A stretch of 32,000 nucleotides of DNA. Origin: Candidatus Altimarinota bacterium. GTDB lineage: Bacteria > Patescibacteriota > Gracilibacteria > UBA1369. The notes beneath the pieces are model-generated. The model was given only the letters and a program-made list of their open reading frames with translations. It searched no databases and was not told where the DNA came from. Below, piece by piece: positions 25,482 to 26,129 of this stretch. A program made the position numbers and the translations under genes. How positions within the stretch are numbered: position 1 is the first letter of the stretch; every line of letters begins with the position of its first letter. The stretch spans positions 30,001 to 62,000 of the forward strand of contig JBAZYK010000003.1 in the NCBI GenBank assembly GCA_041659405.1. Reading direction: 5' to 3'.

Positions 25482-26129
25482 ATGCGAAGCGTTAACAAAG
25501 TTATTTTAATCGGAAATCTTACTCGAGACCCTGAAATGCGCCAGACACCAAATGGCCAAAATGTTACTACTTTTGGAATTGCCACAAACCGTGAATGGGT
25601 CACCCATGATGGCAAAAAACATTCTTTAGCTGAATTTCATGATCTTGTAGCCTGGGCACGCCTTGCCGAGATCTGCAGCACGCACCTTAAAAAAGGCAAA
25701 CTAATCTACATCGAAGGATATTTAAAAACACGCAGTTGGGACACGCCGGAAGGTGTCAGAAAATTCAAAACCGAAATCGTAGTTCAGGACATGATCATGC
25801 TGGACAAACGTCCACAAGGTGAAGCGATTGTTGATGACTACATTCCGGAAGATGAAAATCACACAACCATGGCTACTCCGGACATTAACGAAGAGCTTGA
25901 TCTGGGAACAAGAATCCAGAAAAAACCGGCGCCGGCGCAAACTTACGAAAGACGCCCGGAAAGACCGGCAGTAAGCCAACATCACCAGGCGGTAAAAGCT
26001 GAAACAGTTGGAGTTTCATCATCTGAATCCACTTTCAAATCCGCTGAACCTTCCCTCAAAGAAGCAGCAGGTGAATCCTCCGCTCCGGGCAGTCACAGCA
26101 TAAATATTGATGACGACCTTGGACTCTAA
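25482..26129 (+). CDS. ssb: single-stranded DNA-binding protein
   Basis: OB-fold start VNKVILIGNLTRDPEMRQTPNGQNVTTFGIATNREW, a long disordered tail and the acidic tip NIDDDLGL. Confidence 0.9.
   Translation: MRSVNKVILIGNLTRDPEMRQTPNGQNVTTFGIATNREWVTHDGKKHSLAEFHDLVAWARLAEICSTHLKKGKLIYIEGYLKTRSWDTPEGVRKFKTEIVVQDMIMLDKRPQGEAIVDDYIPEDENHTTMATPDINEELDLGTRIQKKPAPAQTYERRPERPAVSQHHQAVKAETVGVSSSESTFKSAEPSLKEAAGESSAPGSHSINIDDDLGL

Follow-up and report, generated by a model that had tools for sequence, protein, structure and literature searches.

The adjacency of rpoB and rpoC is among the most conserved gene pairings in bacteria. In the window, by which we mean the whole stretch of 32,000 nucleotides analysed here, from the ultra-small, Peregrinibacteria/Peribacteria-type Candidatus Altimarinota bacterium, the two genes lie on the same strand with a complete ssb gene between them (Table 1). 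An earlier note made from the sequence alone had described this gene, its acidic DDDLGL tip and its spacers of 113 nt (rpoB-ssb) and 51 nt (ssb-rpoC). The domain matches given below, the same-strand flanks, the translated C-terminus and the coordinates all agree with that description. The note had also placed a TIM-barrel gene 5' of rpoB and had found rplKAJL missing there, and both points stand. The genes 5' of rpoB are serS, a small ORF and a xylose-isomerase-like TIM-barrel gene (PF01261, 20072-20869), and rplL was found on another contig, C1. The rplKAJL-rpoBC operon found in most bacteria has rpoB ahead of rpoC on the same strand, as does this locus, here with a strong promoter-like site before rpoB. 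Unlike in that operon, a gene separates rpoB from rpoC, rplKAJL is located elsewhere and rpsL-rpsG directly follow rpoC. The transcription unit possibly ends with rpsL and rpsG. The rpoB leader, from the promoter-like site to the ATG, contains a hairpin with a T-rich stretch after it (20917-20938), which is a possible leader attenuator.

Table 1. Coordinates of features at the rpoB-ssb-rpoC locus (positions in the window)
Feature	Position	Strand	Remarks
sigma70-like promoter match, TTGACA-16-TAGAAT, 11/12	20872..20899	+	138 nt 5' of the rpoB ATG; candidate operon promoter
rpoB, 1443 aa	21037..25368	+	six Rpb2 domains; clade-specific N-terminal and acidic C-terminal extensions
Palindromic hairpin element	25384..25466		37-nt core at 25411-25447; copy of a genome-wide intergenic repeat
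ssb paralogue, 215 aa	25482..26129	+	OB domain (residues 4-106), low-complexity linker of ~100 aa, tip
Tip I-D-D-D-L-G-L	26106..26126	+	order-wide conserved motif I-D-x-D-L-G-L
ssb-rpoC spacer, 51 nt	26130..26180	+	A/T-rich; no + strand promoter-like or terminator-like match
rpoC, 1303 aa	26181..30092	+	
rpsL	30219-30632	+	directly 3' of rpoC
rpsG	30713-31168	+	after rpsL

The ssb product matches PF00436 with an E-value of 1.7e-34 (118.5 bits against a Pfam cut-off of 26) and the NCBIfam profile TIGR00621 with 143.1 bits against a cut-off of 53.95. The closest PDB structures are bacterial SSBs (E ~1e-30). Residues 107-215 form a low-complexity linker rich in P, E, A and S and then an acidic tip, with the C-terminus reading ...NIDDDLGL. 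In E. coli SSB, W40, W54, F60 and W88 contact ssDNA and H55 lies in the tetramer interface. We take W39, F52, H53, W58 and W86 of the rpoBC-linked protein to occupy the positions of E. coli W40, W54, H55, F60 and W88, a match made by eye on the translation rather than with an alignment tool. From these features we infer that the gene encodes a functional SSB of the homotetramer type, which would form tetramers and bind ssDNA. Like E. coli Ssb (PF00436/TIGR00621), the protein has a single N-terminal OB fold, a disordered linker and an acidic, hydrophobic-ended tip. It differs from E. coli Ssb in that the tip reads I-D-x-D-L-G-L rather than D-D-D-I-P-F, and in that its gene is additional to one for a canonical-tip SSB and lies inside the rpoBC operon.

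The spacers of related loci were compared. Across 74 rpoB-ssb-rpoC loci, a set that contains a few genomes fetched twice (about 70 loci), the median spacers were 39 nt (rpoB-ssb) and 40.5 nt (ssb-rpoC), and most were unstructured. Promoter-like sites were compared at 22 related loci in which the rpoB start was covered, taking the best match in the 200 nt before rpoB. A sigma70-like match of at least 10/12 was found before rpoB in 22/22 loci (10-11/12), before ssb in 0/22 and before rpoC in 1/22. In the window scan, no + strand promoter-like site was found from the match before rpoB until 29467. The gene is likely to be co-transcribed with rpoB and rpoC from a promoter before rpoB, because the spacers are short and promoter-like sites lie 5' of rpoB and almost never before ssb or rpoC. 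Co-transcription, which the earlier note had thought probable, is thus the most economical reading of the sequence data.

Occurrence of rpoB-ssb-rpoC in related genomes

To place the gene order in context, one genome per species was scanned for loci encoding close relatives of the protein. Of the 80 loci retrieved, 46 had the order rpoB-ssb-rpoC and one more was cut by a contig end, and in 31 the ssb was located at rpsF and rpsR, either between the two genes or next to them. By name the records belong to Peregrinibacteria, Peribacteria and Gracilibacteria/Altimarinota, apart from a few that are mislabelled; Peribacteria is a class of Peregrinibacteriota in the NCBI taxonomy. The arrangement is present in independent assemblies from many studies, including the closed single-contig genomes G208, G162, G017 and G033. 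The possibility of a mis-assembly or a singleton, which the earlier note had named as what would refute its observation, is contradicted by this recurrence.

The stretch 3' of rpoB was then compared in a sample of the class (60 genomes, 27 family codes). The order rpoB-ssb-rpoC was found in 27 of the 60 genomes, covering 14 families, and in two more the contig ended after rpoB-ssb. No ssb accompanies rpoB-rpoC in families f3, f8, f10, f18, f22, f25, f27, f29 and f33. Family f13 has rpoB followed by one or two ssb genes, with rpoC elsewhere, and f14 has rpoB alone. In the order to which the window belongs, 41 genomes were sampled, and the arrangement was present in 25 of the 39 scorable genomes and in 14 of 19 families. 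Within the order, f3, f37, f39 and f47 did not have it, nor did single genomes of f1, f5 and f38. In the same phylum outside the class, no ssb was found within 1.5-1.8 kb 5' of rpoC in any of 85 genomes, and rpoB lay directly there in 80. The order rpoB-ssb-rpoC is thus an old, inherited and class-specific arrangement that has been lost several times, rather than the local operon rearrangement that the earlier note had considered. Given the several losses within the order, the rpoBC-linked ssb is dispensable.

Other genes were also found at this position. In f3, where ssb is absent, the gap between rpoB and rpoC is occupied by a gene for a Na+/Ca2+ exchanger (PF01699; L087:3850-4797 (-), E 1e-58; L098:3219-4175 (-), E 7.5e-61). 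An exchanger gene lies between ssb and rpoC in the f7 genome G169, and ~1.2 kb separates ssb from rpoC in genome G261 (f46). One f22 genome encodes a 511-aa protein with S-layer-homology domains (PF00395) between rpoB and rpoC (L118:3268-4803 (-)). Insertions into the gap between rpoB and rpoC thus seem to have recurred in this class. In f13 and f14, rpoC was not found within 5 kb 3' of rpoB (L103-L110, L135, L141, L258), and in genome G007 rpoB and rpoC are on different contigs. Outside the class, f54 has 640-800 nt of extra, non-ssb sequence between rpoB and rpoC (L256, L267, L271, L273), and no rpoB was found within 1.8 kb 5' of rpoC in f53 (L326, L328, L334).

Four ssb genes and the tip of the rpoBC-linked copy

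Four ssb genes were found in the genome: a canonical stand-alone copy, a copy in rpsF-ssb-rpsR, a tail-less copy and the rpoBC-linked copy. A second ssb beside rpsF and rpsR, which the earlier note had suggested looking for, is thus present. The canonical copy (166 aa) has the C-terminus IDDLPF and alone among the four matches TIGR00621 end to end; it covers profile positions 2-165, whereas the match of the rpoBC-linked SSB ends at position 134 of 165. The rpsF-ssb-rpsR copy, on contig C1, is 147 aa long and the tail-less copy 127 aa. The same four genes are found in the closed genome of a family member. Tail-less SSBs of 123-131 aa are conserved in f1 and f3 genomes (L004:1435-1818 (-); L160, L169, L171).

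A canonical-tip SSB was kept in all nine further genomes checked, which represent eight other families of the class. It is a single-OB protein in f3, f14 and f25. In f13, f16, f19, f23 and f31 the canonical-tip SSB is a tandem-OB protein of ~280 aa ending in EDLPF (L146, L149, L151, L152, L165); this two-OB architecture, known from the SSBs of Deinococcus and Thermus, thus also occurs in CPR bacteria. A second type of SSB, here called R-type, starts with MRS[VI]NKVILIGN. With each placement state represented by one or two genomes per family, the R-type gene was found at both loci in f1 and other families of the order, only at rpsF-rpsR in f3 and f25, where the canonical SSB is also present, and only at rpoB in f13, f16, f19, f23 and f31. 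In the last group rpsF and rpsR are directly adjacent without an ssb. The empty rpsF-rpsR site in genomes with the R-type gene at rpoB only argues that, in part of the class, the rpoBC-linked gene is the relocated ribosomal-operon ssb rather than an extra copy.

The relationship between the copies was examined with the OB domain. The rpoBC- and rpsF-linked copies of this genome share 73% OB-domain identity, and values of 68-81% were obtained in all pairings, within or between genomes. No position in the OB-domain alignment separates rpoBC-linked from rpsF-linked copies. In a tree of the OB domain (112 columns), the R-type copies split from the canonical SSBs with a support of 97/91, and the rpoBC- and rpsF-linked copies intermix. 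Monophyly of the rpoBC-linked copies was rejected on the same 112 columns (AU p 0.005), and with it a single clean duplication. Repeated exchange (gene conversion) or repeated duplication would each explain the intermixing. In the OB-domain tree, SSBs from other phyla are the neighbours of this genome's DDLPF copy.

The C-terminal tips were then compared. Of the 74 ORFs from rpoB-ssb-rpoC loci, taken without selection, 56 terminate in DLGL or DLGI. Among 53 distinct rpoBC-linked SSBs chosen for a [DE][LF]G[LI] ending, D(-3), L(-2) and G(-1) were invariant, and I(-6) and L(0) were each present in 51. The consensus ending of this selected set is [N/D]-[P/D]-I-D-[K/S/R]-D-L-G-L, and the total length ranges from 148 to 216 aa (median 178 aa), with the linker accounting for the variation. 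The rpoBC-linked copy carries not the canonical tip D-D-D-[IL]-P-F but I-D-x-D-L-G-L, as in the 53 distinct orthologues. The DLGL tip retains the canonical pattern (acidic at -5 and -3, aliphatic at -2, turn-forming at -1, hydrophobic at the end), but glycine replaces the proline and leucine the phenylalanine. In contrast, the rpsF-linked copies have a median length of 148 aa and varied endings, such as D-x-I-E-F, N-V-F and D-[IV]-F-E-G. In other orders, the rpoBC-linked copies end, for example, in DDLNF, DNLF, EDLF or PLFEEE-x-R and often look more canonical. Within this order, the tail is the locus-specific part of the rpoBC- and rpsF-linked copies and their OB domains are indistinguishable.

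Similar endings were seen in other proteins. The RpoB C-terminal motif E-L-Q-S-L-G-L (~24985-25005) ends like the SSB tip, which may be coincidence. The tip may also bear a likeness to the hexapeptide with which the C-terminus of E. coli Pol IV binds the clamp and whose last residues are L-G-L, although the key upstream Q-L of that hexapeptide is unmatched. A 189-aa protein ending in DYDDLGI (C6:59622-60191) was considered as a carrier of a shared docking motif and rejected as a chance match; it has no Pfam match, and the ending was not kept by its orthologues in 29 related genomes.

Interpretation of the rpoBC-linked SSB

The reading that we favour, and consider probable, is that an R-type SSB moved early to rpoBC, is likely co-transcribed there and carries a tip that probably recruits different partners. 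The ssb of rpsF-ssb-rpsR would have been copied into the rpoB-rpoC gap when the class was young and then fixed there, a direction of events proposed on an unrooted tree. Transcription of ssb with rpoB and rpoC would tie its dosage to the gene-expression machinery. The association of ssb with rpsF and rpsR is widespread in bacteria, and to our knowledge no physical link between SSB and the ribosome has been described. A move from one expression-machinery operon to another, with no such link known, therefore argues first for selection on growth-coupled dosage, and a coupling of RNAP and SSB dosage is plausible.

The canonical SSB tip is what replisome and repair partners read, and the (E/D)DLPF protein presumably serves these partners here. 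The rpoBC-linked SSB would have the same ssDNA-binding core as the rpsF copy, with a longer linker and a different tip. In this order, replacement of D-D-D-I-P-F by I-D-x-D-L-G-L would probably bring one or more different partners to ssDNA. The variant tip and the longer linker thus point to a different partner set at ssDNA, and we infer partner switching from these two features.

Some parts of this arrangement have counterparts in known systems. In B. subtilis, SsbA and SsbB are the SSB of the rpsF-ssb-rpsR operon and its paralogue. In such rpsF-operon systems, as here, an SSB gene is embedded in an expression-machinery operon and presumably co-regulated with it, and a cell has more than one SSB paralogue with different tails. 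The rpoBC-linked gene differs in that its host operon is rpoB-rpoC and its closest paralogue is the lineage's own rpsF-operon copy. Unlike the canonical rpsF-operon SSB, the rpsF-linked copies of this class have lost the canonical tip.

An alternative is that the protein is a transcription-coupled SSB, or RNAP accessory factor, whose tip tethers it to RNAP or to a factor travelling with RNAP. The OB tetramer would then hold the non-template strand, which would reduce R-loops, assist promoter melting or ease conflicts between replication and transcription. The gene is kept across the class between the genes for the two largest RNAP subunits, with spacers of ~40 nt, its tip is nearly invariant and unlike those of both other tailed SSBs of the same genome, and a separate canonical SSB is available for replication. 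There are also precedents. E. coli SSB activates the virion RNAP of phage N4. An interaction of Sulfolobus SSB with RNA polymerase is reported, according to a passage in PMC2246294 that cites its reference 43. In these precedents the SSB acts with RNAP partly via its C-terminus; these links come from biochemical work and have no counterpart in gene order, whereas the tie of the rpoBC-linked SSB to RNAP is one of gene order. Moreover, the sister copy lies in rpsF-ssb-rpsR, so that a place within an expression operon does not by itself imply binding, and the two copies cannot be told apart at any OB-domain position. The ssb was lost repeatedly while rpoB and rpoC stayed, and the rpoBC-linked copies of other orders have the more canonical-looking tips (DDLNF, DNLF, EDLF). 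The acidic tail of RpoB was also compared. After the ELQSLGL motif it spans 48-144 aa in the order, and its length does not track the presence of ssb (the median is 86 aa for 33 RpoB proteins with ssb and 77.5 aa for 18 that lack it, and the ranges overlap); RpoB open-frame lengths likewise gave no clean split by ssb presence. Collectively, these results make an RNAP-bound SSB a possible but rather unlikely reading.

A second alternative concerns the rpoB-ssb spacer. The earlier note had seen no recognisable terminator in either spacer. No U-tract follows the stem found there, and the element is therefore not a classical intrinsic terminator, but the 113-nt spacer is not featureless, as it holds a hairpin with a stem of ~40 bp (-52 kcal/mol, z -8.2). 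If this repeat were a terminator, a processing site or an mRNA stabiliser, the dosage of rpoB would be uncoupled from that of ssb-rpoC in this genome. The stability of the stem is consistent with such a role, as is the company it keeps: the 37-nt core has 28 copies on 10 contigs of the genome, all between ORFs and 24 of them between co-directional ORFs, and the family resembles REP-type elements, which modulate expression within operons. The outer arms differ among copies yet remain self-complementary, and the copies sit ~40-50 nt from each neighbouring ORF. Others were located at G000:C3:66019-86864 (ten copies), C6:59022-59112 and C6:76676-77403.

Several observations argue against uncoupling. 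Besides the missing U-tract, the + strand has no promoter-like site between the match at 20872 and 29467, which would leave rpoC promoterless, and the element has no Rfam match. The 113-nt spacer is an outlier, and in the nearest relative the spacer is 28 nt long and free of the element. That the hairpin is a conserved regulatory part of the operon was rejected, as most related loci are without the hairpin and it belongs to a genome-wide repeat family. We consider uncoupling of rpoB from ssb-rpoC unlikely. Because of the short spacer of the closest relative, the REP-like repeat is seen as a recent addition to a working operon and not part of its conserved design. In this genome the hairpin could nevertheless terminate or process the transcript, and it may attenuate, process or stabilise it and so modulate the relative expression of rpoB and ssb.

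It is very unlikely that the rpoBC-linked copy is the main replicative SSB and the DDLPF copy an accessory one, for example one acquired horizontally. The location in a strongly expressed, essential operon and the grouping of the DDLPF copy with SSBs of other phyla are consistent with that idea. However, a canonical-tip SSB was present in every genome examined and the rpoBC-linked copy is missing from many relatives. In addition, only the DDLPF copy matches TIGR00621 over its full length, tip included, and it is the canonical tip that replisome and repair partners are established to read. That the arrangement is a product of mis-assembly, a rearrangement confined to one genome or a recently inserted mobile or phage gene has a negligible probability and was ruled out, since the gene order recurs in independent assemblies, closed genomes included, the region around rpoB-ssb-rpoC has even GC content and no mobile genes, and the SSB has no close relatives in viral collections (36-40% identity, best 40%).

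Together, these results describe an SSB paralogue in which both the conserved tip and the conserved place in an operon are new; a full-text search of the literature turned up no account of an ssb in the rpoB-rpoC gap. A whole class of bacteria keeps a DNA-metabolism gene between rpoB and rpoC. Within minimal genomes, in which spare genes are rare, three tailed SSBs with three docking tips per cell are a natural experiment in the partitioning of partners by tips. SSBs that serve specifically in transcription or gene expression appear to exist in archaea and eukaryotes. The rpoBC-linked SSB would be of high interest in this respect only if its tip contacts the transcription machinery, in which case an SSB would be an integral part of how a whole CPR class transcribes its genes. 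Under the favoured reading of an early move to rpoBC, the ssb of the ribosomal operon is able to relocate into that of RNA polymerase, which suggests that selection acts on coupling to the expression machinery rather than on one particular operon.
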